A stretch of DNA of 64,000 bases from Escherichia coli (GCF_013315695.1 NZ_CP054353.1); one strand, 5' to 3'; counted from the stretch's first letter, positions 1,045 through 38,699 are shown. Numbers and translations: made by a program. Notes: generated by a model from the letters alone, not told the origin.

Positions 1045-1086
1045 AATTTGCACCGCAAATTTGAAGAGGTTTTAACTACATGTTAT

Positions 1087-1345: not shown

Positions 1346-4249
<2,904 letters not shown>

Positions 4250-4463: not shown

Positions 4464-4515
4464 CAAATTAAGCAGTAAGCCGGTCATAAAACCGGTGGTT
4501 GTAAAAGAATTCGGT

Positions 4516-4592: not shown

Positions 4593-4602
4593 CTTATTAA
4601 GA

Positions 4603-18394: not shown

Positions 18395-18509
18395 GGTCTT
18401 TTCTCCCTTTCAGGGAGAGGGCCGGGGTGAGGGTAACAGCCTGCACCTTTTTACTTTTTAATCAATCTTCGCCGGGGGCCATGCGCTCCCGCTGTTGTGG
18501 AGGTTACCC

Positions 18510-19277
18510 ATGTGCGAATTGCTCGGGATGAGCGCCAACGTCCCTACCGATATCTGCTTTAGTTTCACCGGACTTGTACAGCGTGGTGGTGGAACCGGGC
18601 CACATAAAGATGGCTGGGGCATTACCTTTTACGAAGGTAAAGGCTGTCGCACATTTAAAGATCCGCAACCCAGCTTTAATTCCCCCATCGCCAAACTTGT
18701 CCAGGACTACCCGATAAAATCCTGTTCGGTTGTGGCTCATATTCGCCAGGCCAATCGGGGCGAGGTGGCGCTGGAAAATACTCACCCGTTTACCCGCGAG
18801 TTATGGGGACGTAACTGGACTTATGCCCATAACGGGCAACTGACGGGGTACAAATCACTGGAAACCGGCAACTTCCGCCCGGTCGGTGAAACCGACAGCG
18901 AAAAAGCCTTCTGCTGGCTCCTGCATAAATTAACGCAGCGTTACCCGCGCACACCGGGCAATATGGCGGCAGTGTTTAAATATATCGCCTCACTGGCGGA
19001 TGAACTGCGGCAGAAGGGCGTTTTCAACATGCTGCTTTCTGACGGACGCTATGTAATGGCGTATTGCTCGACTAATTTACACTGGATCACCCGCCGCGCG
19101 CCGTTTGGCGTGGCAACGTTGCTGGATCAGGATGTGGAAATCGACTTCAGCTCGCAGACCACACCGAATGATGTGGTCACGGTGATTGCAACACAGCCGC
19201 TGACGGGCAATGAAACCTGGCAAAAGATTATGCCAGGCGAATGGCGCTTATTTTGCCTCGGGGAGCGTGTAGTTTGA
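18510..19277 (+). CDS. yafJ: Class II glutamine amidotransferase-like protein
   Basis: N-terminal MCELLGM nucleophile Cys motif; SD GGAGG before ATG 18510. Confidence 0.88.
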
Positions 19278-19988
19278 TGCCAGCTGTGGCTGCACAACTT
19301 CGTGGCTTAACGGCTTGCTGACCACGTAACGGCCATTGACCACAGAAACGGTCGGTGGCTTACGGGTTTGCTCAAAGTAGTCGTAACCTGGCTTCAGCTG
19401 CTCCCAGAAGTCCTTAAAGTTGGAATATTTATGGCGCTTCATATTGGCGTCGGTCATGCGGAACGGGTAAATACTCACTTGCACGCTCGGCTGACCAAAA
19501 ACCAGCGCACCAGTAACGAACTGGAAGATCTCATCAATACCCTGATTGGTCATCGCGTAGCAGCCGATGGAAACACAATCGCCGTGGATCATCAGATATT
19601 TCCCTTCATAACCATGCGCACGGTCATAGGCATTGGGGAATCCAATATTAATCGCTTTGTAGTAACGGCTGTCTGGTTTTAACTGATTACGCTGGACGCT
19701 ATAAAACCCTTCCGGGCTTTTGAAATCGCCCTGACGCTGTTTTGGCCCTAAGCCGCCGGAATATTTACAGATTTTATAGCTGTCGAGCAGTTGATATTGC
19801 TCGCCCATTTTGACGTAGAGATCGAGCGTACGTTCTTCCTTGAAGATCTGGATGTAGACAGGGGATCCCATCAACTGCTGCTTATACTCTTTGCTCACTG
19901 GCGTGGTCGAGCTACTGCTGCCCAGCAAACCGGCAAACGAAACGCACGGGATCAACAACATCGCAAGAATTAATGCGATTTTACGCAT
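19248..19988 (-). CDS. yafK: L,D-transpeptidase-family periplasmic protein
   Basis: 246 aa; signal peptide; YkuD-like catalytic region with HGxxxxxxxSxGC-type motif ([14 protein letters not shown]). Confidence 0.88.
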
Positions 19989-20143
19989 ACTGCTTATTCC
20001 TTGATAAAACGGTTACACACGCCAGGACGGCAAAATGGATCCCAAATCGGAATAGTCTGGATTGGGAAGGCTCACATTATCACCAAAAGAGTTTTACGCA
20101 AGCCTGTCGGCGCAGGGTTTACAAATTTCATCGGCAGCGGGCT

Positions 20144-20422
20144 TTACCCAAAGAGCGCCGCGTGAGTTCCAGTTCTCTCAAATCGTAAAAGTTTATCGGT
20201 AAGTTTGTAAATCAGGATCCAGTCCGGTTCGACATGAGCATCGCGATAACCTTTCCATGAACCTTGCAGCGGGTGGTCTTTATAAACAGCTGGAAGCAGT
20301 AAAGTATTATTGATAAGAAGCGTCATAAGATATTTCAATTTATTCATATCCTTATGACGCTTTTGTGCAAGTTTTACATCCTTTGAAAATTGTCCCGAGT
20401 ATTCAATATCCCTTTGAATCAT
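20144..20422 (-). CDS. yafQ: Toxin YafQ (ribosome-dependent mRNA endoribonuclease, RelE family)
   Basis: 92 aa MIQRDIEYSGQFSKDVKLAQKRHKDMNKL...; immediately downstream of dinJ. Confidence 0.92.
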   Translation of the reverse strand: MIQRDIEYSGQFSKDVKLAQKRHKDMNKLKYLMTLLINNTLLLPAVYKDHPLQGSWKGYRDAHVEPDWILIYKLTDKLLRFERTGTHAALFG

Positions 20423-20424
20423 AT

Positions 20425-20685
20425 TTAAATTCCTAATTTATCAAATAAATCATCGGCGTCTTTGGCCTTATGAACACCAACGCCAGCTTCGCTGTTTTTG
20501 ATTGATTGAATAGTTAATTGATTAGGCTCGCGTAAATCAAACGGCAATGCCTTTTCACGCGCGACCTTTGTGAGGGTTATGCGAACCAGGTCAGAGATGG
20601 TCAGCCCCATCCCGGCCAGTACGTCCGCCGCCTGATTCTTCAGATCTTCATCGATTCGGGCGCGAACAAACGCGTTAGCAGCCAT
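20425..20685 (-). CDS. dinJ: Antitoxin DinJ
   Basis: 86 aa MAANAFVRARIDEDLKNQAADVLAGMGLTISD... RHH antitoxin. Confidence 0.92.
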   Translation of the reverse strand: MAANAFVRARIDEDLKNQAADVLAGMGLTISDLVRITLTKVAREKALPFDLREPNQLTIQSIKNSEAGVGVHKAKDADDLFDKLGI

Positions 20686-20699
20686 TGGGGTATCTCCTG

Positions 20700-20719
20700 T
20701 GCTGTATATTTATTCAGCT
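20700..20719 (-). promoter_or_regulatory. LexA box (SOS operator) of dinJ-yafQ
   Basis: Minus-strand AGCTGAATAAATATACAGCA: CTG-N10-CAG palindrome 15 nt upstream of dinJ start codon. Confidence 0.7.
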
Positions 20720-20894
20720 TGAATTGTAGCTCAAATGAGCAACAGCGACAATCTATGAGTAATTTAATAAACGGATGTTTTTACATAATTAACTGAAATA
20801 TATTTATTAATTTTATAATAATGGTTTATTAAGTTTGTTCAGGTACGGGCCGGGATACACTGCAACATCAATGCATGACCAGCCATTATTGAGT

Positions 20895-21725
<831 letters not shown>

Positions 21726-21820
21726 AATCTGTGCATTTTTTGCGAGCCGCTTTCCCGTTTTTCCATCACCTCATTGCTGACCTTTCCTTTTCTTCTTACC
21801 GTTGAGAAAAAGGAGTCGCT

Positions 21821-22318
21821 ATGTCTGAATATCGTCGTTATTACATCAAGGGGGGAACATGGTTTTTCACGATAAATTTGCGGAATCGTCGAAGCCAACT
21901 TTTGACCACCCAGTACCAGACGCTCCGTAACGCCATTGTTAAAGTTAAGCGAGCCAGACCTTTTGAAATTAACGCCTGGGTAGTCTTGCCAGAGCATATG
22001 CACTGTATCTGGACATTACCTGAAAGCGATGATGATTTTTCCTCTCGCTGGCGTGAGATTAAAAAACAGTTCACTCAAACTTGCGAAATGAAAAATATCT
22101 GGCAACCGCGTTTTTGGGAGCACGCCATCCGCAATACCAAAGATTATCGCCATCATGTTGATTATATTTATATAAATCCAGTAAAACATGGCTGGGTAAA
22201 GCAAGTGAGTGATTGGCCATTCTCAACGTTCCATCGCGATGTCGCGAAAGGGTTATATCCCATCGATTGGGCGGGGGACGTAACGGATTTAAATGCTGGC
22301 GAGCGTATTATTTTATAA
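21821..22318 (+). CDS. rayT: REP-associated tyrosine transposase RayT
   Basis: 165 aa; HuH motif (PEHMHCIW) and catalytic Tyr region; flanked on both sides by REP elements. Confidence 0.92.
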   Translation: MSEYRRYYIKGGTWFFTINLRNRRSQLLTTQYQTLRNAIVKVKRARPFEINAWVVLPEHMHCIWTLPESDDDFSSRWREIKKQFTQTCEMKNIWQPRFWEHAIRNTKDYRHHVDYIYINPVKHGWVKQVSDWPFSTFHRDVAKGLYPIDWAGDVTDLNAGERIIL

Positions 22319-22325
22319 TTGTGCG

Positions 22326-22412
22326 CTGATGCCGGATGCGCTTACGCTTATCCAGCCTACGAATCGTGCCTTAACAGTAGGACGGATAAGGCGTTTACGC
22401 CGCATCCGGCAG
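22326..22412. repeat. REP/BIME element at left boundary of Flag-2
   Basis: CTGATGCCGGATGCGCTTACGCTTATCCAGCCTAC ... GTAGGACGGATAAGGCGTTTACGCCGCATCCGGC. Confidence 0.85.
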
Positions 22413-22433
22413 TTGTGCACCGGTGCCGGATAC

Positions 22434-24527
22434 CTACATCAACGCCCCCATAATCTTCAACTCCAGCTCGTCCGGCACTTCGTTATACGACAGCACATGC
22501 AGCCCCGGTGCAAACAATCTCGCATAGCGCGCCAGCAAAGGGCGCAACTGCGGTGGCACCAGCAGCACAGGGTCTTTCCCCGCCGCTTTCATCTGCTCCT
22601 TCACCTGCGGCATCGTGTTCTGGAACTGGTTAAGCATATTCGGGTCCACCGGCACGCTGTCGAGCATCACTTTGCCGCCCTGTTGCGCCTGATTCACTAC
22701 GTTGGTCAGCAGATTTTCCAGCTCATTATTCAGCGTATACACCGTCAGCTCCTGTTTGCGAACGAACGGATGGGTAATGCTGCGCCGCAGCGCCAGGCGC
22801 ACATCGGCCGCCAGCAGAATATGATCTTTAGTCACCGCACTACTGGCGACCAGCACGGTGGCGATGGTGACGATATCGCGCAGGGAAACGCCTTCGGTCA
22901 GCAGCGTCCGGTACACTTTCAGCAACTGGCTGTAGTTGAGCGCCGCGCTCAAATCTTCCGCCAGGCGCGGTGCCATCGACGACAGGCGGTTATGCAACTG
23001 CGTGATGTCATCATAGTTAAATAATTCAGGAATATAGCTGCGCACAATCTTATTCACATGGGTGGCAATCACGCTGGCGCTGTCGATCACCTGATACCCC
23101 ATATTCAGCGCCTTCGCTTTCTGCGCAGGCTGGATCCAGGTGACCGGCATCCCATATGCCGGGTCATTCCCCAGTACGCCGTCAATCTCGCCGTAGGTTT
23201 CGCTGGAGGGCAACGCCATCAGTTTATCTGCCGGAATATCCGCTTCATCGGCCTTAATGCCGTTGATGAATATGGCGTACTGGCTGGGCTTGAGGCGGAA
23301 GTTTTCCCGAATACGGATCTCCGGCAGCAGCACGCCGTTGCCGTCGGAAATCACCTGCCGCACGCCGCGAATCCGCTGGGTGAGCGGGTTACCTTGGGCT
23401 TTATCGACCAGCGCCACCAGCTTGTAGCCGAGACTTAAGCTGATAGGCTCGATCAGCGGAATGGTTTCCCAACTGACCTGTTGCTCGCTGGTTTCGGTGA
23501 TGGTGCGGGTCAGTGTTTCGAGGCTTTTCTCTTCCGCCTCCGCCGCCTGCGGGCGTTTGCTCATCCGCCAGCCGGTAAAGCCAAGCAGGGCGCTGAACAG
23601 CAAAAATGGCAGATGCGGCATCCCCGGCACCACCGCCAGCACAAACATGATCCCGGTGGCGGTGTAGAGCACCGACGGGCTTGCCAGCAGCTGGTGGCGC
23701 ACGTCATGGGCGATATCGCCGTTGTCGCTGACGCGGGTGACGATAATTGCCGCCGCGGTGGAGAGCAGCAGGGACGGGATCTGCGCCACCAGGCCGTCGC
23801 CGATGGTCATCAGCACATATTGCTGGAAGGCGGCGTCGGCGCTCAGGTTGTATTTGAAGATGCCGATACAGACGCCGCCGATCAGGTTGATCGCCAGAAT
23901 CATCATCCCGGCGATGGCATCGCCGCGCACAAACTTCGATGCCCCGTCCATCGCGCCGTAGAAATCGGCCTCGCTGGCAACATCTTTACGCCGTGTTTGC
24001 GCCTGCGCCTGGTTGATCAATCCGGCGTTAAGATCGGCGTCAATCGCCATCTGCTTGCCGGGCATCGCGTCCAGGGTAAAGCGGGCAGAAACCTCGGAAA
24101 TACGCTCGGCCCCTTTGGTGACGACGATAAAGTTGATGATCATCAGGATGATAAACACCACAAAGCCGACGACAAAGTTGCCGCCAATCACCACCTGACC
24201 AAATGACTCAATCACCTTACCCGCCGCGCCTGCGCCGAGATGCCCGTGCAGCAGCACCACGCGCGTAGAAGCAACGTTAAGCGTCAGGCGCATTAAAGTG
24301 GTGATCAGCAAAATGGTCGGGAACAGGCTGAATTCCAGCGGTCGTTTCGCCGACACCGCCACCAGCAGCACCATCACCGCCAGCACAATGTTGAAGGTGA
24401 ACAGAATATCCAGCAGCGCAGGCGGCAGCGGCAGAATAACCATCGCCAGAATACAAAGTATAACCAGCGGTACGCCGAGATTACCGCCGCGCAGCAGCGC
24501 GAGGAACGATTTAGTTGTTTTCGCCAT
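22434..24527 (-). CDS. lfhA: Flag-2 flagellar export apparatus protein, FlhA homologue (full length)
   Basis: 697 aa; FlhA/LcrD family transmembrane N-domain plus cytoplasmic C-domain. Confidence 0.9.
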   Translation of the reverse strand: MAKTTKSFLALLRGGNLGVPLVILCILAMVILPLPPALLDILFTFNIVLAVMVLLVAVSAKRPLEFSLFPTILLITTLMRLTLNVASTRVVLLHGHLGAGAAGKVIESFGQVVIGGNFVVGFVVFIILMIINFIVVTKGAERISEVSARFTLDAMPGKQMAIDADLNAGLINQAQAQTRRKDVASEADFYGAMDGASKFVRGDAIAGMMILAINLIGGVCIGIFKYNLSADAAFQQYVLMTIGDGLVAQIPSLLLSTAAAIIVTRVSDNGDIAHDVRHQLLASPSVLYTATGIMFVLAVVPGMPHLPFLLFSALLGFTGWRMSKRPQAAEAEEKSLETLTRTITETSEQQVSWETIPLIEPISLSLGYKLVALVDKAQGNPLTQRIRGVRQVISDGNGVLLPEIRIRENFRLKPSQYAIFINGIKADEADIPADKLMALPSSETYGEIDGVLGNDPAYGMPVTWIQPAQKAKALNMGYQVIDSASVIATHVNKIVRSYIPELFNYDDITQLHNRLSSMAPRLAEDLSAALNYSQLLKVYRTLLTEGVSLRDIVTIATVLVASSAVTKDHILLAADVRLALRRSITHPFVRKQELTVYTLNNELENLLTNVVNQAQQGGKVMLDSVPVDPNMLNQFQNTMPQVKEQMKAAGKDPVLLVPPQLRPLLARYARLFAPGLHVLSYNEVPDELELKIMGALM

Positions 24528-25650
24528 CCAGTTTAAGCACCTCTTTGGGAATGGAAATATGTCTGTTCAGGGCCGGGCGCGGCTGTGCGCCCTCGCGCCA
24601 GTGTTTCATTTGCAGGACGTAGGTCAGAACGTGGGCGATAGCCCGGTAAAGCTGAAACGGAATTTGTTGGTTCACCTGCGTGGTGTAGTAAACCGAGCGC
24701 GCCAGCCGCGGGAACTCGACCACTTCCACCTGATTCTCAGCGGCGACCTGGCGAATATAGAGGGCGATTTCATCGGTGCCTTTTGCCACCACAAACGGCG
24801 CGGCGGCGCGAGACTGGTCATACTGCAACGCCACGGCGTAGTGGGTCGGGTTGGTGATCACCACGTTGGCTTTCGGCACCACTTTGCGGATTTGCCCCAT
24901 CGCCAGCTGCCGTTGCAGCCGTCGCACGCGCGCCTTCACTTCCGGCTTGCCTTCCTGATTTTTGTACTCTTCTTTCAGCTCCTGCTTGGTCATCTTCAGC
25001 CCTTTGGTAAACAGGGCTTTCGCCAGCGGCACGTCGATAAGCGCAAAGAAGATAAACAGGATGACAAAGTTGCGCATCACGCTGGCGTAGAGCGACAAAC
25101 CCTCATTCATCGCCAGTTTGAACGGCAGCGCTTGCAGGCCGAGGAAGGCGGCAAAGTTATTGCGCAGGCTAATCCACAGCATCACCAGCACCACCACCGA
25201 CTTCGCCGTCATCTTTCCCGTTTCCGCCAGATGTTCACTGGAAAACAGCCGCCCAATCCCTTTTAACGGGCTAATTTTGCTGAAATCCGGGAGGATTTTT
25301 TTCGGCAGAAACAGCCAGCCGCCAGGCACCAGCGAGGAGAGCAGCGCAGCGGCGGGCATCGGCAGCAAGGTAAGAATAAACTTGCCGAGAATTAACAGGT
25401 GATGGCGCAGAAACTGGCCGATCACATCCGGGTTATTAATCTCCTGCGCGTACTGATGCACGCTGATAAAACTCTCACGCACAAAATCGGCATACCACGG
25501 GAAGCTGCTGGAGATCACCACAAACGCCGCAAACAGGCTCGCCGCCAGCCCCATATCCTTCGAGCGCGGCAGTTGCCCCTCTTCACGCGCTTTACGCAGC
25601 TTTTGCGCCGAGGGTTTCTCTGTTTTTTCTTCGCTGCTGCTATCCGCCAT
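24511..25650 (-). CDS. lfhB: Flag-2 flagellar export switch protein, FlhB homologue
   Basis: 379 aa; conserved NPTH autocleavage motif (VITNPTHYAVAL); overlaps lfhA start by 17 nt. Confidence 0.9.
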   Translation of the reverse strand: MADSSSEEKTEKPSAQKLRKAREEGQLPRSKDMGLAASLFAAFVVISSSFPWYADFVRESFISVHQYAQEINNPDVIGQFLRHHLLILGKFILTLLPMPAAALLSSLVPGGWLFLPKKILPDFSKISPLKGIGRLFSSEHLAETGKMTAKSVVVLVMLWISLRNNFAAFLGLQALPFKLAMNEGLSLYASVMRNFVILFIFFALIDVPLAKALFTKGLKMTKQELKEEYKNQEGKPEVKARVRRLQRQLAMGQIRKVVPKANVVITNPTHYAVALQYDQSRAAAPFVVAKGTDEIALYIRQVAAENQVEVVEFPRLARSVYYTTQVNQQIPFQLYRAIAHVLTYVLQMKHWREGAQPRPALNRHISIPKEVLKLDGENN

Positions 25651-26422
25651 AGTGACCTTTCAGCGCGTCGAGTTGCTGCAACACAAAATTCGCCAGATGC
25701 AGATAGTGATCCGGCAGGTTGTAGAGCAGGGTGGCGAAGCAAACCAGCCCCGCCAGCATGTTGATGGGAAAGCCGAGCGAAAAAAGGTTCAGCGGCGGCG
25801 CAATGCGGTTAAGCAGGCCAAAGCAGCCCTGCACAATCAGCATGATAAAAGTGGTCGGCAGCGCCAGCAGTGATGCGGACGCCAGCACCCAGCTAAAGGC
25901 CAGCGCGATGGTGCGCAGGGGTTGCGGATGCAGCGCGTTGCCAATCGGCCAGTAGGTGAAGCCCTTATACAGCACGCTTACCAGCAGCAGATGCCCGTCC
26001 ATGGCAAAAAACAGCAGGATCGCGTAGACGTTAATTAACTCTGCCAGCACGGTTGTTGATGCGCCGCTGCTCGGGGCGTTCATCACCGCCATGCTCATCC
26101 CCATATTGAACGAGAGAATTTGCCCGGCCAGTTGCAGCGCCAGAAACAGAAACTGAAACATCAGCCCGAACAACATGCCCCATAATATTTGCTCCACCGT
26201 CAGGATCAGGCTATTGAGCGATAGCAGGTCGTGGGGAATGGGATGGGGGATCAACGGCGTGATGATGATCGCCAGCGCCAGCGACAATATAATCCGCACG
26301 CGCACGGTCAGGGCGCTGTTATCCAGCACCGGCACATAGCGCAGAAACGCCATAATGCGCACGAAGGGGAACCACAGCCCCAGCACCAGATCCATCAGTT
26401 GCGTAACGTCGCTTGTGCGCAT
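25640..26422 (-). CDS. lfiR: Flag-2 export apparatus protein, FliR homologue
   Basis: Polytopic membrane protein; ATG at 26422 directly follows lfiQ stop; track ORF extends 17 codons further upstream. Confidence 0.85.
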   Translation of the reverse strand: MRTSDVTQLMDLVLGLWFPFVRIMAFLRYVPVLDNSALTVRVRIILSLALAIIITPLIPHPIPHDLLSLNSLILTVEQILWGMLFGLMFQFLFLALQLAGQILSFNMGMSMAVMNAPSSGASTTVLAELINVYAILLFFAMDGHLLLVSVLYKGFTYWPIGNALHPQPLRTIALAFSWVLASASLLALPTTFIMLIVQGCFGLLNRIAPPLNLFSLGFPINMLAGLVCFATLLYNLPDHYLHLANFVLQQLDALKGHYGG

Positions 26423-26423
26423 C

Positions 26424-26696
26424 TTAATGCACCAGCAGGGCGGCCTGACTAAACAGATGAATGCAGAGATCATGCAACTGGATAATCATCCATTTGCCGC
26501 ACACCCCCAGCACCACCAGCGTGACAATCAGCCTTGGCAAAAAGCTCAGGGTCTGTTCGTTAATCTGCGTCACCGCCTGGAACACGCTCACCAGCAGGCC
26601 GACCAGCAGGCTTGGCACCACCAGTACCGAAACCAGCAAAATCACTACTTTAATGCCGCTGGCGACAATGTCGGCGGCTACGTCTACGGTCAACAT
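26424..26696 (-). CDS. lfiQ: Flag-2 export apparatus protein, FliQ homologue
   Basis: 90 aa, two TM helices. Confidence 0.9.
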   Translation of the reverse strand: MLTVDVAADIVASGIKVVILLVSVLVVPSLLVGLLVSVFQAVTQINEQTLSFLPRLIVTLVVLGVCGKWMIIQLHDLCIHLFSQAALLVH

Positions 26697-26698
26697 AA

Positions 26699-28663: not shown

Positions 28664-28841
28664 GGCTTACTTTCTCTGCTGTAATGGTATGGGCGTTGTT
28701 GTGCACGCAAATCCGGCAGTGACACAAGGTGAGGTATTAAATAGAGGGGGCGTGAAAGGGGCAAATTATTAATAGGGTGAAAAAATAATTAAATTATTAA
28801 AGGGCGAGGTATCGGGCATCGTCATAAAACATTGCACGAAT

Positions 28842-28926
28842 TGTAGGCCTGATAAGAGGCGCAGCGTCGCATCAGGCATCGGTGCACAATTGCCGGATGG
28901 CGGCGTAAACGCCTTATCCGGCCTAC
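28842..28926. repeat. REP/BIME element in lfiM-lafK divergent intergenic region
   Basis: TGTAGGCCTGATAAGAGGCGCAGCGTCGCATCAGGCA ... TTGCCGGATGGCGGCGTAAACGCCTTATCCGGCCTAC. Confidence 0.8.
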
Positions 28927-29050
28927 GGTTCTAACTCATTGTTTATCAACAAATAATATTTTTATTATCGTTTAATTCGAACTTGTTAATCCCGCCGGTG
29001 ATACGCTTCAGAACATCCTGTTTTCTGTCGCTACTTATATCGTTCACCCT

Positions 29051-30037: not shown

Positions 30038-30051
30038 CCCGGAAGTTAAAA

Positions 30052-30393: not shown

Positions 30394-30397
30394 CCCT

Positions 30398-32053
30398 ATG
30401 AATGCACAAATAAAGAAGTTAACCCAGGCGTTTCCGGCGTTTCGACTGCGTCTTGCAGATAACAAACGCTGGGCATTGATGGCGGGAGTGGGGCTTGCCG
30501 TTGCGGCGACGGCGATTATCGTCAGCGTACTGTGGACCGGTAATCGCGGCTACGTCTCGCTCTACGGACGCCAGGAAAATCTGCCCGTGTCGCAGATTGT
30601 CACCGTGCTGGATGGCGAAAAGCTCAGCTACCGCATCGACCCGCAAAGCGGGCAGATTCTGGTGCCGGAAGATGAACTGTCGAAAACGCGCATGACCCTT
30701 GCTGCCAAAGGCGTGCAGGCGATCTTGCCCAGCGGCTACGAGCTGATGGACAAAGACGAAGTGCTCGGCAGCAGCCAGTTCGTGCAGAACGTGCGCTACA
30801 AACGCAGCCTCGAAGGGGAGCTGGCGCAGAGCATTATGTCGCTGGACGCGGTGGAGAGCGCGCGGGTGCATCTGGCGCTCAACGAAGAGAGCTCGTTTGT
30901 GGTCAGCGATGAGCCGCAAAACAGCGCCTCGGTGGTGGTGCGTCTGCATTACGGCGCGAAGCTGAATATGGACCAGGTGAACGCCATTGTGCATCTGGTT
31001 TCCGGCAGCATTCCGGGGCTGCACGCCAGCAAAGTTAGCGTCGTCGATCAGGCGGGAAATCTGCTGACCGACGGCATTGGCGCGGGCGAAGCGGTTTCAG
31101 CCGCTACCCGTAAACGCGATCAGATCCTCAAAGATATTCAGGACAAAACCCGCGCCAGCGTGGCGAACGTGCTGGATTCGCTGGTCGGCAGCGGGAATTA
31201 CCGCGTCAGCGTCATGCCGGATCTCGACCTCAGTAATATCGATGAAACTCAGGAACACTACGGCGACGCGCCGAAAATCAACCGCGAAGAAAACGTGCTG
31301 GACAGCGATACCAATCAGGTGGCGATGGGTGTGCCCGGTTCGCTTAGCAACCGCCCGCCGGTTGCACCTAATCAGGTTACTAACGGCGCGATGCCCGCCG
31401 ACGAAAATCGCTCGCCGGAAGCCCTTTCGAAACACAGCGAAAGCAAGCGCGATTACTCTTACGACCGCAGCGTCCAGCATATTCAGCATCCCAGCTTTAC
31501 GGTGAAACGCCTCAACGTGGCGGTGGTGCTCAATCAAAACGCTCCGGCGCTGAAAAACTGGAAGCCGGAGCAGACCACGCAGCTTACCGCGCTGCTGAAC
31601 AATGCCGCCGGGATCGACGCGCAACGTGGAGACAATCTCACCTTATCGCTGCTTAACTTTGTCCCGCAGGCGGTGCCGGTCGAACCAATTATTCCGTTGT
31701 GGAAAGATGACAGCGTGCTGGCCTGGGTGCGGCTGATTGGCTGCGGCCTGCTGGCGCTGTTGTTGCTGTTCTTTGTGGTGCGCCCGGTAATGAAACGACT
31801 GACGGCGGTACGTGCGCCGGTTATCACACCAGAACCGGAAGCTGTCAGCGAACCGTGGATTGCCATGCCGGAAGAGGAACGCAAAAACGTCGATCTGCCG
31901 TCGCTGCCCGGCGATGACAGCCTGCCGTCCCAGAGTTCCGGCCTCGAAGTAAAACTCGAGTTCCTGCAAAAACTGGCCATGAGCGACACCGATCGCGTAG
32001 CCGAAGTTCTCAGACAATGGATCACCAGCAATGAGCGAATTGACAACAAATAA
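30398..32053 (+). CDS. lfiF: Flag-2 MS-ring protein, FliF homologue
   Basis: 551 aa; N-terminal and C-terminal TM segments flanking a periplasmic ring-building domain. Confidence 0.9.
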   Translation: MNAQIKKLTQAFPAFRLRLADNKRWALMAGVGLAVAATAIIVSVLWTGNRGYVSLYGRQENLPVSQIVTVLDGEKLSYRIDPQSGQILVPEDELSKTRMTLAAKGVQAILPSGYELMDKDEVLGSSQFVQNVRYKRSLEGELAQSIMSLDAVESARVHLALNEESSFVVSDEPQNSASVVVRLHYGAKLNMDQVNAIVHLVSGSIPGLHASKVSVVDQAGNLLTDGIGAGEAVSAATRKRDQILKDIQDKTRASVANVLDSLVGSGNYRVSVMPDLDLSNIDETQEHYGDAPKINREENVLDSDTNQVAMGVPGSLSNRPPVAPNQVTNGAMPADENRSPEALSKHSESKRDYSYDRSVQHIQHPSFTVKRLNVAVVLNQNAPALKNWKPEQTTQLTALLNNAAGIDAQRGDNLTLSLLNFVPQAVPVEPIIPLWKDDSVLAWVRLIGCGLLALLLLFFVVRPVMKRLTAVRAPVITPEPEAVSEPWIAMPEEERKNVDLPSLPGDDSLPSQSSGLEVKLEFLQKLAMSDTDRVAEVLRQWITSNERIDNK

Positions 32054-33041
32054 GAGCAACAGCTACCTGGAACAGGCGGCGATCCTGCTGCTGTGTCTGG
32101 GCGAAGAGGCGGCGGCAACGGTGATGCAAAAACTCAGCCGTGAAGAAGTGGTGCGCCTGAGCGAAAACATGGCGCGGCTTTCCGGTGTCAAAACCAGCAT
32201 GGCGCGCAAAGTGATCAACAACTTCTTTGATGAGTTCCGCGAACAGAGCGGGATCAATGGCGCGTCGCGATCTATGTTGCAGGGCATTCTCAACAAAGCG
32301 CTAGGCACCGAGATCGCCAGCAGCGTGATCAACGGCATCTACGGCGATGAGATCCGCTCGCGGATGGCGCGACTGCAATGGGTGGAACCGCGCCAGCTGG
32401 CGATGCTGATCTCCGAAGAGCATCTGCAATTGCAGGCAGTATTCCTCGCGTTTCTGACGCCGGAAATCTCGGCGGCGGTGCTCTCGTATCTCAATGAATC
32501 GGTGCAAAACGAAATTCTCTATCGGGTGGCGAAACTCAACGACGTCAACCGCGACGTGGTGGATGAACTGGACAGGCTGATTGAACGCGGCCTGTCGGTG
32601 CTTTCGGAGCACGGCTCGAAGGTGAAAGGCATCAAACAGGCGGCGGATATCGTCAACCGCTTCCAGGGCAACCAGCAGGTGATCCTCGACCAGATGCGCG
32701 AGCGCGACGAAGACGTGCTGGAGCAGCTTCAGGATGAGATGTACGACTTCTTTATCCTCAGCCGCCAGAACGAAGAGGTGCGTCGACGTCTGCTCGACGA
32801 AGTACCGATGGAAGACTGGGCGGTAGCGCTGAAAGGCACCGAAGCCCTGTTGCGCCGTTCCATTTACGCGGTGATGCCAAAACGTCAGGCGCAGCAACTG
32901 GAAGCGATCACCGCGCGTCTGGGGCCGGTGCCGGTCAGCCGTATCGAACAGATCCGCCGCGAAATCATGGGCATTGCCCGTGAACTGGAAGAGGCGGGCG
33001 AAATTCAGCTACAGCTCTTTGCGGAACAGACGGCGGAGTAA
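32031..33041 (+). CDS. lfiG: Flag-2 rotor/switch protein, FliG homologue
   Basis: 336 aa. Confidence 0.9.
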   Translation: MSELTTNKSNSYLEQAAILLLCLGEEAAATVMQKLSREEVVRLSENMARLSGVKTSMARKVINNFFDEFREQSGINGASRSMLQGILNKALGTEIASSVINGIYGDEIRSRMARLQWVEPRQLAMLISEEHLQLQAVFLAFLTPEISAAVLSYLNESVQNEILYRVAKLNDVNRDVVDELDRLIERGLSVLSEHGSKVKGIKQAADIVNRFQGNQQVILDQMRERDEDVLEQLQDEMYDFFILSRQNEEVRRRLLDEVPMEDWAVALKGTEALLRRSIYAVMPKRQAQQLEAITARLGPVPVSRIEQIRREIMGIARELEEAGEIQLQLFAEQTAE

Positions 33042-33043
33042 CC

Positions 33044-33754
33044 ATGACCATTGAAACACTGCGCGGGCGCTATCGCCTGCACCGTTTTCCGCCGCGCCAG
33101 CGTGCGGTGACCGGAGAACCGCTCACCGCCAGCATTAGCGCCGCCGATTACCAGCGCCAGTTGATGGACGGTTTTCAGGAAGGGCTGCAAAAAGGGTTTG
33201 CTCAGGGAATGACCGAAGGCCAGGAGCAGGGCTTTAGCGAAGGTCATCAACAAGGTTTTGCCGAGGGGCGACGCCAGGGCTACACCGAAGGCAGCCTCGC
33301 CGGGCAGCAGGAAGGGCGCAAACAGTTTGTTGACGCGGCACAGCCGCTGGAAGCCATCAGCGGAAAAGTGAACGACTTTCTCGCCCATATCGAACGCAAA
33401 CAGCGGGAAGATTTGCTGCAACTGGTGGAAAAAGTCACCCGCCAGGTGATCCGCTGCGAACTGGCGCTGCAACCGACGCAGTTGCTGGCGCTGGTGGAAG
33501 AGGCACTGGCGGCCTTCCCGGCAATGCCGGAGACCCTCCAAGTGATGCTAAGTACGGAAGAATTTAACCGCTTGCGCGACGCGGTGCCGGAAAAGGTCAG
33601 CGAATGGGGGCTGACGCCTTCGCCGGATCTGCCGCCGGGTGAATGCCGGGTGATCACCGATAAATCCGAACTGGATATCGGCTGCGAGCACCGCCTGGAA
33701 CAATGCATGACCGCGCTACAAGAGACGCTAACGCCGGAGTCACAGGGTGAGTGA
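33044..33754 (+). CDS. lfiH: Flag-2 export ATPase regulator, FliH homologue
   Basis: 236 aa; glycine-rich repeats GFAQGMTEGQEQGFSEGHQQGFAEGRRQGYTEG. Confidence 0.85.
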   Translation: MTIETLRGRYRLHRFPPRQRAVTGEPLTASISAADYQRQLMDGFQEGLQKGFAQGMTEGQEQGFSEGHQQGFAEGRRQGYTEGSLAGQQEGRKQFVDAAQPLEAISGKVNDFLAHIERKQREDLLQLVEKVTRQVIRCELALQPTQLLALVEEALAAFPAMPETLQVMLSTEEFNRLRDAVPEKVSEWGLTPSPDLPPGECRVITDKSELDIGCEHRLEQCMTALQETLTPESQGE

Positions 33755-35084
33755 TTTTTCCGCTTTCGATAACGCCCTGCGCTCGCTGGAGTCGATCCCG
33801 CTGGCCCGCGTCGCCGGGCGGCTGGTGCGCCTTAATGGCATCCTGCTGGAGAGCGTCGGCTGCCCGCTAATGACCGGGCAGCTGTGTCGCATCGAAAGCG
33901 CCAACCACACGCTTATCGACGCGCAGGCCGTAGGCTTTAATCGCGATATCACTTACTTAATGCCGTTTAAACAGCCGGTCGGCCTGATGGCGGGGGCGCG
34001 CGTCTTCCCGGAAGAAAAAGCCCACGACATCCTGATTGGCGAAAGCTGGTTAGGCCGCGTGGTTAACGGCCTCGGCGAACCGCTGGATGGCAAAGGCCGC
34101 CTGAACGGCAACGACCTTCTGCCGCCGCTGCCGCCGTCGGTTAATCCCTTAACCCGCCGTTCGGTGGACGAACCGCTGGACGTGGGCGTGAAAGCGATCA
34201 ACGGCCTGCTGACCATCGGCAAAGGCCAGCGTGTCGGGCTGATGGCGGGCAGCGGCGTCGGGAAAAGCGTGCTGCTGGGGATGATCACCCGCCAGACCAA
34301 AGCCGACATTGTGGTGGTCGGGTTGATTGGCGAACGCGGGCGCGAAGTAAAAGAGTTTATCGACCACTCGCTGGGCGCGGACGGGCTGGCAAAGTCTATC
34401 GTCGTCGTCGCGCCCGCCGATGAATCGCCGCTGATGCGCCTGAAAGCCACCGAACTGTGCCACTCCATCGCCGCCTGGTTTCGCGACCGCGGGCATCACG
34501 TTTTACTGCTGGTGGATTCCCTGACCCGTTACGCGATGGCCCAGCGGGAAATAGCTCTCTCGCTCGGCGAACCGCCCGCCACCAAAGGCTATCCGCCGTC
34601 GGCATTCGGCATGATCCCCAAACTGGTCGAGAGCGCAGGCAACAGCGAAAGCGCGGGATCGATGACCGCCATCTACACCGTGTTGGCGGAAGGCGACGAT
34701 CAGCAAGATCCGATTGTCGACTGCGCCCGTGCGGTGCTGGACGGGCATATCGTATTAACCCGCAAACTGGCGGAAGCGGGGCACTATCCGGCTATTGATA
34801 TCGGCCAGTCGATCAGCCGTTGCATGAATCAGGTGACCAGCCTGGAACATCAGCAATCCGCCCGTGCGTTAAAGCAAAACTACGCCGCGTATATGGAGAT
34901 CAAACCGCTGATCCCGCTCGGCGGCTACGTGGCAGGTGCCGACGCCAGCGTCGACAAAGCGGTAAAAATGTTCCCGGCTATCGAGCGTTTTTTGCGCCAG
35001 GAGATGCGCGAACCTGCCTCCCTGGAACTGGTGCAAAGCCGCCTGCAAATTCTCTTTCCTGGTGTCAAAAAGGCAGAACAGTAA
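33747..35084 (+). CDS. lfiI: Flag-2 flagellum-specific ATPase, FliI homologue
   Basis: 445 aa; Walker A GSGVGKS, F1/T3SS ATPase family. Confidence 0.93.
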   Translation: MSDFSAFDNALRSLESIPLARVAGRLVRLNGILLESVGCPLMTGQLCRIESANHTLIDAQAVGFNRDITYLMPFKQPVGLMAGARVFPEEKAHDILIGESWLGRVVNGLGEPLDGKGRLNGNDLLPPLPPSVNPLTRRSVDEPLDVGVKAINGLLTIGKGQRVGLMAGSGVGKSVLLGMITRQTKADIVVVGLIGERGREVKEFIDHSLGADGLAKSIVVVAPADESPLMRLKATELCHSIAAWFRDRGHHVLLLVDSLTRYAMAQREIALSLGEPPATKGYPPSAFGMIPKLVESAGNSESAGSMTAIYTVLAEGDDQQDPIVDCARAVLDGHIVLTRKLAEAGHYPAIDIGQSISRCMNQVTSLEHQQSARALKQNYAAYMEIKPLIPLGGYVAGADASVDKAVKMFPAIERFLRQEMREPASLELVQSRLQILFPGVKKAEQ

Positions 35085-35086
35085 CC

Positions 35087-35521
35087 ATGCGACAAATCAT
35101 CGACACCCTGGCGCAGTTGCAGCGCCTGCGGGATAAATCGGTCAAAGACAAAACCGTCGAGCTGGCAAAGCAAAAACAGATTTGTGCGGGTTATGACAAC
35201 AATATCAAAGCATTAGGCTACCTGGTGGAGAAAACATCTGCGGGCGCGGCAGCGTCGGTGGAATCGCTGAAAAACGTCAGCGACTACAAAGGCACCTTGC
35301 GCAAGGTGATCGCCTGGCAGGAGCAGGAAAAAACGCTGGCTAACATCAAAGCCACGCGAATGCAGAAAAACCTGACGGCGGCGGCGTGCGAAGAGAAAGT
35401 GGTGGCCCTGACGCTGGACGACAAACGCCGCGAGCAGCAAGAAAGTGCCACGGCGAAAGCGCAAAAAGCGGTGGATGACATCGCCGTCCAGTGCTGGCTG
35501 CGGCATAAGTTAGCGGAGTAG
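35087..35521 (+). CDS. lfiJ: Flag-2 export chaperone/stalk protein, FliJ homologue
   Basis: 144 aa coiled-coil protein starting at ATG 35087 right after lfiI stop. Confidence 0.8.
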   Translation: MRQIIDTLAQLQRLRDKSVKDKTVELAKQKQICAGYDNNIKALGYLVEKTSAGAAASVESLKNVSDYKGTLRKVIAWQEQEKTLANIKATRMQKNLTAAACEEKVVALTLDDKRREQQESATAKAQKAVDDIAVQCWLRHKLAE

Positions 35522-35523
35522 CC

Positions 35524-35928
35524 ATGAAAACGGTCATCACCTTCGGCACCTTCGATGTGTTTCATGTCGGTCATCTGCGCCTTTTACAACGCGCCCGCAC
35601 GCTGGGCGAACGGCTGCTGGTCGGCGTATCGTCCGACGCCTTAAATATCGCCAAAAAGGGCAGAGCACCGGTTTACCCTCAGGATGACCGCATGTCGATC
35701 ATCGCCGGGCTGGCGTGCGTGGATGGCGTATTTCTGGAGGAATCGCTGGAGCAGAAAGCGGAGTATCTGCGGGGGTACCGTGCGGATATTTTAGTGATGG
35801 GCGATGACTGGGCAGGAAAGTTTGACAGCTTCGCGTATATTTGTGAGGTAGTGTATTTCCCCCGCACGCCGTCGGTGTCGACGACGGGGATTATTGAGGT
35901 GATTAGGGGTAAATCAGCCACCTACTGA
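35524..35928 (+). CDS. Glycerol-3-phosphate cytidylyltransferase (TagD-like, makes CDP-glycerol)
   Basis: 134 aa MKTVITFGTFDVFHVGHLRLLQRA... with HxGH motif and ...VVYFPRTPSVSTTGIIEVI; start codon 2 nt after lfiJ stop with SD GGAG. Confidence 0.85.
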   Translation: MKTVITFGTFDVFHVGHLRLLQRARTLGERLLVGVSSDALNIAKKGRAPVYPQDDRMSIIAGLACVDGVFLEESLEQKAEYLRGYRADILVMGDDWAGKFDSFAYICEVVYFPRTPSVSTTGIIEVIRGKSATY

Positions 35929-35976
35929 TTTAATTCCCGCAGTGAGAGAAGATGATGCCGTTTGGCTATGTTAAAT

Positions 35977-36079
35977 ATGTTTAAAAAATCGCGTTTTTTC
36001 GACATATCCCCAAAACATGTCGATGGCATAAACGTATTCCAACGACATGTTTAAAAATCGCATTTTATCGACATATCCC
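35977..36079. repeat. Two copies of a ~34-bp imperfect direct repeat plus a 10-bp inverted repeat
   Basis: ATGTTTAAAAAATCGCGTTTTTTCGACATATCCC (35977..36010) and ATGTTTAAAAATCGCATTTTATCGACATATCCC (36047..36079); inverted arms AAACATGTCG 36013..36022 / CGACATGTTT 36043..36052. Confidence 0.7.
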
Positions 36080-38521
36080 TGACGATTCCTTGCCCGCCAA
36101 CGCCTCCACAATCACCATCGTCGCCCGTTCTCCCGCCTTGCCATCCATAAACGCATCGCAATAGTGATGACGAATCTTCGTAAGCCGCGCCTGCACCGCC
36201 CCCCAGTCAAACGCCTCTGACAACAAGTAACGCAACTCTGCCATATCATGAGCCACCGGCAATATTTCGCGGATTTGCTGATCGGCGCTCTCCGGCGTGG
36301 AGTAGCTTTTCTCGCCGTCGAGCAATTCACTCATGCCCGGAAAGTCGAGCAGGATCACCCGCTTATCAACGTGGATAGCATCGAAAATAAAGCCGCTGTT
36401 ATCGGTCAGCACGTAATCGGCCTTTGCCAGCAGCGCCAGCGTGTGACGGGCGGAGTCGGTGCGCTGTTTTAAATGCCTGCGAGCCAGGGCCAGCGATGCA
36501 GCTTCTTCCGGGCGCGAGCAGGTGCCGTGGTGCAGTTTGCAAATCAGGTTCACATCATCGCTTAAGCGCCCCAATTTTTCTGCCCAGTGGGGCAGGGAGC
36601 TTAATGCGCCAAACGTTGGGGCGTAGAGTACGGTGGGTTTACGCTCGTCCAGTTTGATATTTTCCGGCAACGCGCGGTCGAACGTGGCGTTATGCCAGGC
36701 GTCGAAGCGCGGGTTGCCGACCACTATTGCGTTGCTGAGGTGCGCCAGCGCCTGCTGGCTGTAGTGGCTGTAACACAAAATGCGCTGATAAAAACGGTTC
36801 CAGTCGGCGTGGTTCCACGTTTCTTTGGCTAAGCCGTACATGGCGCGAATGTTCAGGGGGGAAAGGCCACTGAGCGCAGGCGTGTGATAGGGGCTGACCA
36901 GGCATTTTACTCGCTGACCGTGTGCCTGCATTTCTGACAGACGCATACCTTTAAGCTGCGGATCGTCGATGTTTTTCAGTGTTTCCAGCATCTCATCCAG
37001 AAACGGTTTAAACACGCGGTCATTGATCACCAGTGTGCAGCTCTGCCCCTGCGCCTGCAGGGCGGTGATGATTGGGCGGTAGAGCGCGTAGTGGAATGAG
37101 GTTTCCATAAAAAAGCCGATGGTATCGGCGATAGGTAATGTAGATGGCTTGGTGGCTACGGGTAACTTATTGAAGTAGTGGTTAATGTTATCAGTCGCTT
37201 TTTTCTCGATATCACTAAAGCCCGGTCGCTGATAACAAAGGCTCGGGTAACAGGCCAGCCATTTGTCGGTGCGCAGCAGCGGCTGCCAGCCGTCTTCCAG
37301 CGAATGCTCATCGTTGTTCATCTGCTGCGCCAGCTGCGGGTAGTAGCGGCGGTTCACCAGATAAGCGCACACTTTGCGGCAGTCCCGCGCGTGCACCAGC
37401 CCAGGCAAACTTTTTAGCATCGTTCCCTGCGAAATTTCGCCGCCGAGGATCATCACCTGCCAGGGAATTTTCGCCAGGCTCGCCAGCAGCGCGTTCAGCA
37501 CCTGAATATGTTTCTCCTGTTTGAGAATAACCGCGTCATCTTCCAGCAGCAGGTAGTTTTGCCAGCCGCGTTGTTGCGCCAGACGCAGTGCCTGCAAGTG
37601 TGATTGCTGGCGGCCCCGTTGACCGTTTTCATTTTCACTGGCGGCAAGGCGGGTGATCTTCTCAGGAGGAATATGCAGCAATGTGAGTTCTTCACGGATC
37701 TGCTGTAAGCGATCCGGGCGTTTATCCAGATTCAGCAGAACGATCTGATCGATCGCCTGATGATGAGTGGCGTTATGCAGACTCAGATAAGCATTGCGGA
37801 GCAGCGGATCGCGGACGATATCCGTAAGCGTCGCGTTTACTGGCGTGCTGGCCCCGAGAATAAAGTCTTTATCAAAGGTGTTGTGGCTGTGCGAGATACA
37901 CAAAATCGTGCGCTCGCCGGGCAGTTGTAGCGGGTTAACGCTGAAATTGTCGGTGAAACTTTTCTCTTCGCCTAAATTGCAATCGTCATCGTAGCGGTGC
38001 TTTTTCAGGTAGTTACGGTGATAGCAAAAGGTGCCGTTGAGGATGTTATGCGGGCCGAAGCTGCGGCTTTGAAAGATGCGATTGATGTGGCTGTACCAGA
38101 TGGGGATCTGGTCGGAACCGGAGATGAGCGCCCGGTTTTTTTGCATCATAGCGATGGTGTAAGAGATTTTATCTGCCGGGTAGTAGTCGTCATCGTCCAT
38201 GCAGAGGATGTATTCGCCGCGCGCCAGTTCGTTGAGCATATTGCGTTTTTTGCCCAGCGGCAGTTTTTCCGGGTGATGGATGTAGCGGATGTTGAAGGCT
38301 TCCGGTGTGCCATTGGTCAGGCGGTCGATGATGTGTTGATGGCTTTGCGGGGAATCGTCGAGGATGATGAGTTCGCGGCGGTCTGCCGGGTAGTCCTGAT
38401 AGCGGTACATATAAAGCAGGTACGGCAGGAATGCGCTGCGGTTCCAGGTTGGCGTGACGACGCTGACGGACGGTTTTTCGCGCTGGGTGGCGAGTGTTTT
38501 GATAATGGTTGGTGTTGGCAT
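36065..38521 (-). CDS. Large multidomain glycosyltransferase: N-terminal GT2 domain, central GT25-like domain, C-terminal CDP-glycerol glycerophosphotransferase (TagB/TagF-like) domain
   Basis: GT2: VSVVTPTWNR...ILDDSP...CMDDDDYY; GT25-like: IVLLNLDKRPDRLQQI...YLLLEDDAVIL; TagF-like: VLYAPTFGALSS...VLTDNSGFIFDA; start set to ATG 38521 (MPTPTII), track start 38593 is GTG inside a repeat. Confidence 0.75.
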   Translation of the reverse strand: MPTPTIIKTLATQREKPSVSVVTPTWNRSAFLPYLLYMYRYQDYPADRRELIILDDSPQSHQHIIDRLTNGTPEAFNIRYIHHPEKLPLGKKRNMLNELARGEYILCMDDDDYYPADKISYTIAMMQKNRALISGSDQIPIWYSHINRIFQSRSFGPHNILNGTFCYHRNYLKKHRYDDDCNLGEEKSFTDNFSVNPLQLPGERTILCISHSHNTFDKDFILGASTPVNATLTDIVRDPLLRNAYLSLHNATHHQAIDQIVLLNLDKRPDRLQQIREELTLLHIPPEKITRLAASENENGQRGRQQSHLQALRLAQQRGWQNYLLLEDDAVILKQEKHIQVLNALLASLAKIPWQVMILGGEISQGTMLKSLPGLVHARDCRKVCAYLVNRRYYPQLAQQMNNDEHSLEDGWQPLLRTDKWLACYPSLCYQRPGFSDIEKKATDNINHYFNKLPVATKPSTLPIADTIGFFMETSFHYALYRPIITALQAQGQSCTLVINDRVFKPFLDEMLETLKNIDDPQLKGMRLSEMQAHGQRVKCLVSPYHTPALSGLSPLNIRAMYGLAKETWNHADWNRFYQRILCYSHYSQQALAHLSNAIVVGNPRFDAWHNATFDRALPENIKLDERKPTVLYAPTFGALSSLPHWAEKLGRLSDDVNLICKLHHGTCSRPEEAASLALARRHLKQRTDSARHTLALLAKADYVLTDNSGFIFDAIHVDKRVILLDFPGMSELLDGEKSYSTPESADQQIREILPVAHDMAELRYLLSEAFDWGAVQARLTKIRHHYCDAFMDGKAGERATMVIVEALAGKESSGICR

Positions 38522-38570
38522 GGTGTTTGGGTGAGTTAATGGGTGAATGTGATGAATGTGCGTGCTGATG

Positions 38571-38684
38571 CCCTCACCCCGACCCTCTCCCACAGGGAGA
38601 GGGAGAAAACCAGCGCCGATTTTAACACCGTGCTCGATCGGTTCCCTCGCCCCTTTGGGGAGAGGGTTAGGGGGAGGGGAAAAG
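38571..38684. repeat. GC-rich composite palindromic intergenic repeat (CCCTCTCCC/GGGAGAGGG and GGTGAGGG-type motifs)
   Basis: Perfect hairpin CCCTCTCCC-aca-GGGAGAGGG at 38583..38603 and CCCTCGCCCCTTTGGGGAGAGGGTTAGGGGGAGGGG at 38644..38679; related copy at 18402..18436. Confidence 0.6.
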
Positions 38685-38699
38685 CGCGCACAGAGCGAC

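Follow-up and report, generated by a model that had tools for sequence, protein, structure and literature searches.

Escherichia coli carries an intergenic repeat that was described in the 1990s as BoxC, was rediscovered by Hoyne and Maher as PIT (potential intrastrand triplex), and was renamed TMECO by Holder et al. 2015 (PMC4666352). Here we analyse three copies of this repeat in a stretch of 64,000 nucleotides of E. coli DNA (GCF_013315695.1, NZ_CP054353.1; hereafter the window), one copy following gmhA and two lying between a lafV-like gene and a glycosyltransferase gene of the Flag-2 cluster. The published TMECO pattern is 5'-CCCTCNCCC-N3-6-GGGNGAGGG-N3-GGGNGAGGG-3', and its second loop separates type A (TTA) from type B (CCG or TCG) (PMC4666352). 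Strain K-12 possesses 23 TMECO copies with five inverted pairs, every pair joining one type-A to one type-B copy (PMC4666352), and the GenBank record of K-12 annotates BoxC as 33 copies of 51-59 bp each. An intrastrand triplex of family members has been demonstrated in vitro by circular dichroism (CD) and nuclear magnetic resonance (NMR). As reported by Holder et al. (PMC4666352), Hoyne and Maher (2002) found PIT elements to be without promoter or terminator activity. The same authors observed no bias in the class of genes neighbouring TMECO copies, in the distance of the copies from open reading frames (ORFs) or in orientation, and described deletions at 'palindromic' sites (the 'palindrome effect') together with local variability at TMECO loci (PMC4666352).

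Results

Identification of three BoxC copies

The original prediction, made from sequence alone, had proposed one GC-rich palindromic repeat family with members after gmhA and inside Flag-2, and the sequences it quoted are indeed present at both places. We searched both strands of the 64-kb window with a core pattern, GGGAGAGGG-NN-GGGGTGAGGG, allowing up to 3 mismatches. It matched three times, at 18413-18433 (+), 38571-38591 (−) and 38658-38678 (+), compared with a mean of 0.01 matches in shuffled windows, and none of 100 shuffles reached three. The proposal of a single family is borne out, and the repeated motif is real and far beyond chance. Fuzzy pattern matching and two profile searches revealed no additional copy in the window, degenerate ones included. 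When only the palindrome was searched for, as CCCTCTCCC-N4-GGGAGAGGG, nothing matched in the window because the loops are 3 or 5 nucleotides long. All three copies are intergenic. The first Flag-2 copy sits on the opposite strand, a point absent from the original prediction, so the Flag-2 site is an inverted pair. When a 145-nt query over this pair was run against 5426 complete E. coli genomes, 5413 were matched at a median of 17 and a maximum of 30 places per genome; the motif is thus repeated well beyond the window.

Each of the three sites is a copy of BoxC, the E. coli repeat also known as the PIT element or TMECO triplex motif. A regular expression for the strict TMECO pattern matches the Flag-2 site at 38644-38678 (+) and 38571-38603 (−). 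The minus-strand copy (38570-38603; CCCTCTCCCTGTGGGAGAGGGTCGGGGTGAGGGC) has 100% identity with K-12 TMECO no. 20, a type-B element. Direct comparison with the published Table 1 places the plus-strand copy (38644-38679; CCCTCGCCCCTTTGGGGAGAGGGTTAGGGGGAGGGG) one base away from K-12 nos. 7, 11 and 15 (type 'A mm'), the single difference being a T to G change in the third block. With TCG as the loop of its type-B copy and TTA as that of its type-A copy, the pair follows the published A plus B rule. For strain SMS-3-5, Table S8 of Holder et al. (PMC4666352) lists both sequences, at 272864-272831 and 272905-272940. SMS-3-5 272611-273161 aligns to window positions 38350-38900, and in this alignment the Table S8 positions correspond to the two window copies at every base. 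Because sequences and positions coincide, the Flag-2 pair was already catalogued. The finding as such is already known, the repeat having been in print since the 1990s and the Flag-2 copies standing in a published table.

The BoxC unit is about 56 bp long and comprises a C-rich arm of 9 nt, its G-rich complement and a further G-rich block. Conservation among paralogues extends beyond the 36-nt core into the flanks, which read AGAAAACC or ATCGGTC on the inner side and ATCAGCGCGCAC or CAAAGCGCGCAC on the outer side. The G-rich half reads as a G3N3G3N3G3N3G3 motif. Folding tools, which consider Watson-Crick and wobble pairs only, return a hairpin from the first two blocks. The window copies agree with the described family in pattern, in A and B loop types, in A plus B inverted pairing, in intergenic location and in copy number per genome. 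Nothing essential distinguishes them; the differences are that the gmhA copy is degenerate and that the type-A copy carries the T to G change in its third block. The identity of the three sites as BoxC is shown, and we consider it likely that the Flag-2 doublet is a selfish or structural palindromic repeat without a dedicated regulatory role and with passive consequences.

No Rfam family covers the BoxC sites, whether the whole window is searched at the gathering threshold or both sites at E <= 1. Below threshold, the matches there are to generic long-hairpin microRNA models and, weakly, to whalefall-1. The latter model gives the type-B copies at 38570-38605 (−) and 18399-18434 (+) scores of 16.9 and 14 bits, against a gathering score of 37, and the match is probably a mere reflection of a common GC-rich hairpin.

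Anatomy of the Flag-2 doublet

The Flag-2 copy had been predicted to lie between a hypothetical gene and a glycosyltransferase gene, and this placement is correct. The two genes, both on the minus strand, are separated by a 178-nt spacer (38522-38699) that contains a 134-bp BoxC doublet (38558-38691), delimited by paralogue alignment and an end-to-end fold and built of two inverted units with their C-rich arms inward. From left to right it consists of a terminal octamer GTGCGTGC (38558-38565, +; family consensus GTGCGCGC, from paralogue alignment); the type-B TMECO CCCTCTCCC-TGT-GGGAGAGGG-TCG-GGGTGAGGG-C (38570-38603, −); a 40-nt spacer AGAAAACC...ATCGGT (38604-38643), which is conserved among doublets and in which a weak stem resembling a terminator lies on the minus strand (38630 to 38611); the type-A ('A mm') TMECO CCCTCGCCCC-TTT-GGGGAGAGGG-TTA-GGGGGAGGGG (38644-38679, +); and a right terminal octamer GCGCGCAC (38684-38691, +), which sequence and alignment identify as the inverted complement of the left one. 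Both TMECO assignments rest on the strict pattern and Table S8, together with the identity to K-12 no. 20 for type B and the Table 1 comparison for type A.

Expressed as a family consensus, the order of the unit is GTGCGCGC-TGAT, the reversed type-B core, AGAAAACC, about 25 nt of spacer, ATCGGTC, the type-A core and CAAA-GCGCGCAC. The doublet ends are GTGCG(T/C)GC and GCGCGCAC, and the arms pair end to end. Paralogues of the whole unit, spacer included, occur at phnK-phnL, at yjdP-phnP and, in strains TUM14759 and ETEC1738, at lfgJ-lfgK, giving four or more loci in all; they have the spacer and the terminal octamers GTGCGCGC and GCGCGCAC in common. In having its C-rich arms inward, the window doublet resembles K-12 pair 17+18, whereas the other four K-12 pairs have their G-rich ends inward and a central GCGCGC in common. 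In RNA structure prediction the Flag-2 pair closes along its full length into one mRNA hairpin of −80 kcal/mol. A single hairpin from first to last base forms on either strand, the free energies being −80 and −82 kcal/mol and the z-scores −7.3 and −7.6, and folds of the doublet overall range from −80 to −86 kcal/mol with z-scores near −7.

Terminator or passive hairpin at Flag-2

It had been suggested that the Flag-2 copy could act as an intra-operon terminator or stabiliser. As an intrinsic terminator or attenuator, the doublet would lower transcription of the glycosyltransferase gene relative to lafV. It shares with intrinsic terminators a GC-rich stem-loop downstream of a gene, its hairpins are stable and lie between two co-oriented genes, and a 600-nt region gave 3 terminator-like matches against 0.4 in shuffles. 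However, neither BoxC hairpin precedes a U-run, and none was found after either Flag-2 hairpin on either strand. In a terminator consensus scan the sole Flag-2 match was the spacer stem running from 38630 to 38611, which is on the correct strand and is followed by GTTTTCT but is weak, with just 7 pairs of which 3 are G-C and with G-U pairs included. Furthermore, the assays on PIT/BoxC elements, as Holder et al. relate them, were negative for terminator activity, doublets also occur inside other operons such as phnK-phnL, and an allele of the locus without any BoxC exists. The lack of a U-run, together with a family recorded in the literature as having no terminator activity, makes a terminator role for the Flag-2 copy unlikely. 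The intrinsic terminator was rejected as a candidate for the pair on the missing U-tract, the suggestion of an intra-operon terminator is not borne out, and attenuation of the glycosyltransferase gene by the doublet is in our estimate highly improbable. No sigma-70 promoter was found in the doublet spacer region or in the gmhA-yafJ spacer.

The consequences of a structural repeat for the transcript would probably be passive. The lafV-glycosyltransferase mRNA is predicted to contain a very stable long hairpin that starts 8 nt past the lafV stop codon, and such a hairpin would be expected to block 3'-5' exonucleases. According to PMC12306157, which refers to Liang et al. 2015, a gene is translated less when a repetitive extragenic palindromic (REP) sequence lies <16 nt from its stop codon, and by analogy the doublet hairpin might dampen the completion of lafV translation. 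A passive RNA effect of the doublet is plausible on this analogy, and the pair with its end-to-end fold may act as the suggested stabiliser. At the level of DNA, the first two BoxC blocks would make a hairpin on which the third block could lie as a purine-motif triplex when the DNA is single-stranded, and the doublet would constitute a palindrome prone to deletion, inversion and recombination.

The gmhA copy

The stop codon of gmhA occupies 18392-18394 and the BoxC copy begins 4-7 nt after it. Profile search and comparison with K-12 define a core, TTTTCTCCC-TTTCA-GGGAGAGGG-CCG-GGGTGAGGG-T, at 18399-18434 (+), and profile alignment with the consensus reveals an outer-flank remnant, AACAGCCTGCAC (consensus ATCAGCGCGCAC), at 18435-18446 (+). 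This copy fails the strict TMECO pattern and matches a profile built from the K-12 copies with E = 1.3e-8. It is nearest to K-12 TMECO no. 10, of type B, from which it differs by 4 substitutions, all in the C-rich arm. Judged by its sequence, it is a decayed single type-B unit and a degenerate member of the family.

The terminator idea suits this copy better than that at Flag-2. RNA folding predicts a hairpin at 18424-18449 (−12.1 kcal/mol), made up of the third G block and the BoxC flank and followed by TTTTTACTTTTT, and a T-run extends over 18448-18459, so that the terminator-like feature (18424-18459, +) overlaps the 3' part of BoxC. From these folds it looks like the gmhA terminator of this allele; a simple consensus scan made no call.

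The repeat had been described as present both in the chromosomal backbone and in Flag-2. Both sites are real, but the gmhA copy is not a fixed feature of the backbone, since the gmhA-yafJ BoxC allele occurs in 329 of 5426 complete genomes, most strains having REP/BIME in its place. K-12 shows no full-length match to this allele at gmhA-yafJ, and no TMECO is listed there. The spacer (18395-18470) is a three-state polymorphism with identical outer boundaries. Its other alleles are a bacterial interspersed mosaic element (BIME) with three REPs, seen in NEBExpress (a B-strain derivative) and in a strain of sequence type 131 (ST131), and a single REP in O157:H7.

BoxC and REP/BIME as alternative alleles

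At three sites of the window, gmhA-yafJ, lfiM-lafK and lfgJ-lfgK, BoxC and REP/BIME are alternative alleles with the same boundaries. The lfiM-lafK spacer (28801-28929) carries a REP pair in the window and in most strains (naRNA4 match 28846-28923, minus strand), and a single type-A BoxC in 58 of about 1284 genomes, including SMS-3-5, TUM14759 and ETEC1738; this BoxC copy is TMECO no. 153 in Table S8 of Holder et al. (PMC4666352). The lfgJ-lfgK spacer (47986-48343) is occupied in the window by an expanded BIME of 358 nt with two naRNA4 matches, in most strains by a shorter BIME (113-126 nt in those compared), and in TUM14759 and ETEC1738 by a BoxC doublet (about 3 of 60 sampled rows), which starts 1 nt past the lfgJ stop codon. 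At each of the three sites BoxC is in the minority, and a search for empty alleles found none (60 sampled rows in the case of lfgJ-lfgK). Insertions of boxC at BIME loci were reportedly described by Bachellier and colleagues in 1997.

Besides the repeat, the segments replaced between alleles take in unique sequence without homology for about 40-50 nt to either side. The lfiM-lafK BoxC allele matched one place per genome, and no donor locus was found for it. As the replaced segments include unique flanks and no donor possesses those flanks, the exchange of BoxC and REP is not a clean insertion. At lfgJ-lfgK of strain PV0838, a 72-nt insert (TTGTATTATCCCTCCAGTGCAGAGAAAATCGGCCAGTTTTCTCTGCCTGCAGTCCGCATGCCGTATCGGG) interrupts a REP of the BIME and has an inverted repeat of its own, CAGAGAAAA...TTTTCTCTG.

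REP, BIME and REPIN elements, which are mobilised by RayT (TnpA-REP), resemble BoxC in several respects. Both are short GC-rich intergenic palindromes that occur as singlets and as inverted doublets of two subtypes (Y and Z for REP, A and B for BoxC) able to form a long hairpin, both often directly follow stop codons, and in different strains they occupy the very same intergenic slots at the three window sites. By contrast, their sequences are unrelated: BoxC lacks the GTAG tetranucleotide and possesses a third G-rich block. Genomes contain about 20-30 BoxC copies, compared with hundreds for REP, and no cognate transposase of BoxC is known. The Rfam model naRNA4 matches the window at 21644, 28846, 48073 and 48191 and at none of the BoxC sites; the naRNA4/REP covariance model found no REP-like sequence in BoxC, nor did the allele alignments show similarity.

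These parallels raise the question of whether BoxC functions at the RNA level as REP/BIME do, being a selected 3' or intercistronic stem-loop that guards the upstream mRNA against exonucleases or tunes termination of upstream translation. The position of the element fits this proposal, as it begins 8 nt past the stop codon of lafV, 4-7 nt past that of gmhA, 1 nt past that of lfgJ (in TUM14759) and 10 nt past that of phnK, which recalls the translational effect ascribed in PMC12306157 to REPs <16 nt from a stop codon. So do the interchangeability of BoxC and REP/BIME within common boundaries and the small GC hairpin found in the lafV-glycosyltransferase spacer of the ST131-type allele. Yet Holder et al. 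(PMC4666352) found no preferred ORF distance, orientation or gene class, and proximity to stop codons may reflect only the short intergenic space in which an element is permissible. By analogy with REP such a function can be entertained, and we regard it as unlikely.

Mobility and wider distribution

The doublet could instead be a non-autonomous mobile element, similar to a REPIN or a MITE (miniature inverted-repeat transposable element), that is mobilised in trans and lands in or overwrites REP/BIME sites. A length of 134 bp, inverted arms, terminal inverted octamers, presence/absence polymorphism at the lafV-glycosyltransferase spacer, whole-unit paralogues at four or more loci and the minority status of BoxC relative to REP/BIME at three sites would all be expected of such an element. 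MITEs likewise are <200 bp long, have terminal inverted repeats, form a long RNA hairpin and show insertion polymorphism between strains. What sets the doublet apart from MITEs is that we found neither a target-site duplication nor a clean empty site, and no insertion sequence with matching ends as a parent. No empty site from which to define a target-site duplication turned up at any locus, and the sole BoxC-less allele at lafV-glycosyltransferase is too divergent to define the insertion ends. The non-homologous flanks of about 40-50 nt on each side of the replaced segments and the lack of a donor locus with those flanks also speak against a clean insertion. Nor was an associated transposase found: a tblastn search with the RayT encoded in the window (21821-22318) found nothing in 1.07 Mb of TMECO-rich loci of other taxa. 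Finally, the family is nearly absent from phages and rare on plasmids. Weak matches were seen in 4 of 50,697 phage records and matches in 160 of 72,556 plasmid records, the top-ranked E. coli matches among the latter being records of 0.4-4.9 Mb. A mobile doublet is doubtful in our view.

The window itself contains rayT (yafM; 21821-22318, +), a REP-associated tyrosine transposase gene located just upstream of Flag-2 and about 16 kb from the doublet. It is flanked by REPs at 21644-21721 and 22377-22411, an arrangement known as a 'REPtron'.

Outside E. coli, the strict pattern was scanned in one genome per species, and the matches, from about five genomes, are examples of taxonomic spread rather than a distribution. 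They number at least 150 in Mitsuaria chitosanitabida, at least 13 in a Methylomirabilota metagenome-assembled genome (MAG) and at least 3 in a Contendobacter MAG, with one further MAG also matched. The non-E. coli matches listed have the same three 9-mers with different loops and flanks, and many form inverted pairs. We consider it quite improbable that BoxC units and A/B doublets are REPIN-like mobile DNA which preferentially overwrites REP/BIME intergenic slots.

Allelic variation at the lafV-glycosyltransferase spacer

About 1270 genomes carry the lafV and glycosyltransferase flanks of this Flag-2 cluster, and the doublet belongs to one group of Flag-2 alleles. Among the sampled alleles, the spacer is 178 nt long with the doublet, is 159 nt long, or adds only about 43 nt; those of the last kind form an ST131-like group whose flanks are 86.6% identical. 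An example of the ST131-type allele is the 46-bp spacer of strain ZH063, which is without BoxC; the spacer of this type has a small GC hairpin of its own. In strain TUM18530 the doublet is rearranged: compared with the window, its inner part or spacer is inverted and both arms have lost their third G blocks, which leaves a simpler palindrome. The doublet of strain 2313 is intact. The doublet at this locus is dispensable and unstable, in line with the published palindrome effect.

Strain 2313 and the window have 6 differences (4.5%) among the 134 positions of the doublet. Among 100 third codon positions on each side, 9 differ over the first 300 nt of the glycosyltransferase gene and 21 over the last 300 nt of lafV. 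Comparison of window 38672-38800 with strain 2313 shows divergence rising in a step where the doublet borders lafV, and many genomes match the glycosyltransferase flank at 94-95% but not the lafV flank. As read from these alignments, the step suggests a recombination junction at the repeat. Within variable region 1 (VR1), the spacer is probably where lafV and glycosyltransferase alleles of different divergence were joined.

Holder et al. proposed that a non-B structure of the DNA (intrastrand triplex, G-quadruplex or cruciform) stalls replication and creates a hotspot of recombination and instability, which is possibly adaptive. The stable triplex seen in vitro by CD and NMR, the raised variability of TMECO loci across 56 strains (PMC4666352) and the G3N3G3N3G3N3G3 motif of the G-rich half all favour a structure of this kind, and the rearranged TUM18530 allele and the divergence step at the lafV edge (9% versus 21%) fit a recombination junction. 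On the other hand, in vivo footprinting did not detect the triplex, and the type-A copy of the window has, in addition to the T to G change in its third strand, a Watson-Crick mismatch; both, judging from sequence, should weaken a triplex. Variability near the repeats would equally be expected from mobility or from recombination between dispersed copies. That the element acts through such a structure does not strike us as likely.

Genes around the doublet

In the window an rRNA operon is followed by gmhA-yafJ and then by the Flag-2 cluster. The rRNA operon (1-4600) runs off the start and comprises a partial 16S gene, two spacer tRNAs, 23S, 5S and a distal tRNA; a StyR-44 match lies at 1230-1338 and a further tRNA gene at 13517-13590. 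The gene upstream of the doublet (38700-39629, −) is annotated as 'hypothetical protein' or 'lysine-N-methylase' and is LafV/FliB-like by a below-cutoff FliB match, and its stop codon lies 8 nt from the doublet. LafV belongs to VR1 of Flag-2 (PMC6993521).

Downstream lies a GT2-type glycosyltransferase gene (36065-38521, −) with its ATG at 38519-38521. The original prediction left open whether the annotated start falls inside the repeat. It does not, because the doublet ends 36 nt before the RefSeq ATG (38521); the same ATG is present in the allele without the repeat, and the GT2 domain begins at residue 11-19. Only the start of the mechanically longest glycosyltransferase ORF, a GTG at 38593, lies within the repeat, which therefore accounts for a spurious longer ORF whose start is to be avoided in annotation.

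Over the 551 nt compared, the window and strain MS 21-1 are 100% identical. Inside the glycosyltransferase gene (window 36065-38350) there is an in-frame 15-bp length difference from MS 21-1 (818 versus 823 codons), and identity over 12.5 kb is otherwise 99.84%.

Discussion

A structural or selfish repeat with passive consequences is the reading of the Flag-2 doublet that we prefer, and several observations weigh against it. Absence of a dedicated function is a default and not a demonstration, because no function of BoxC has ever been established. The recurrence of the three 9-mers at high copy number in unrelated bacteria and the constant pairing of A with B in inverted pairs both hint at constraint. 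A further hint is that the doublet itself is 4.5% divergent between alleles whose lafV third codon positions differ by 21%, those of the glycosyltransferase gene differing by just 9%; with 9% on one side, 21% on the other and a mosaic-looking region, constraint on the doublet is not demonstrated by this comparison. The published terminator tests used single elements rather than a doublet with its spacer, and it is in that spacer that the weak stem lies. The triplex, moreover, was undetected by dimethyl sulfate (DMS) footprinting in vivo.

For the biology of Flag-2 the doublet carries little weight, being a catalogued intergenic element that one allele of the same locus does without. The allelism of BoxC with REP/BIME is the sole lead here with some potential for novelty. 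If BoxC does preferentially overwrite REP/BIME slots, this would imply either a shared hairpin-targeted insertion pathway or a functional interchangeability of BoxC and REP as stop-codon modules, and the 9-mers in Burkholderiales, Competibacteraceae and Methylomirabilota would point to widespread machinery. Some 30 years after the repeat was described, this allelism offers a cheap and testable handle on the function and spread of BoxC.

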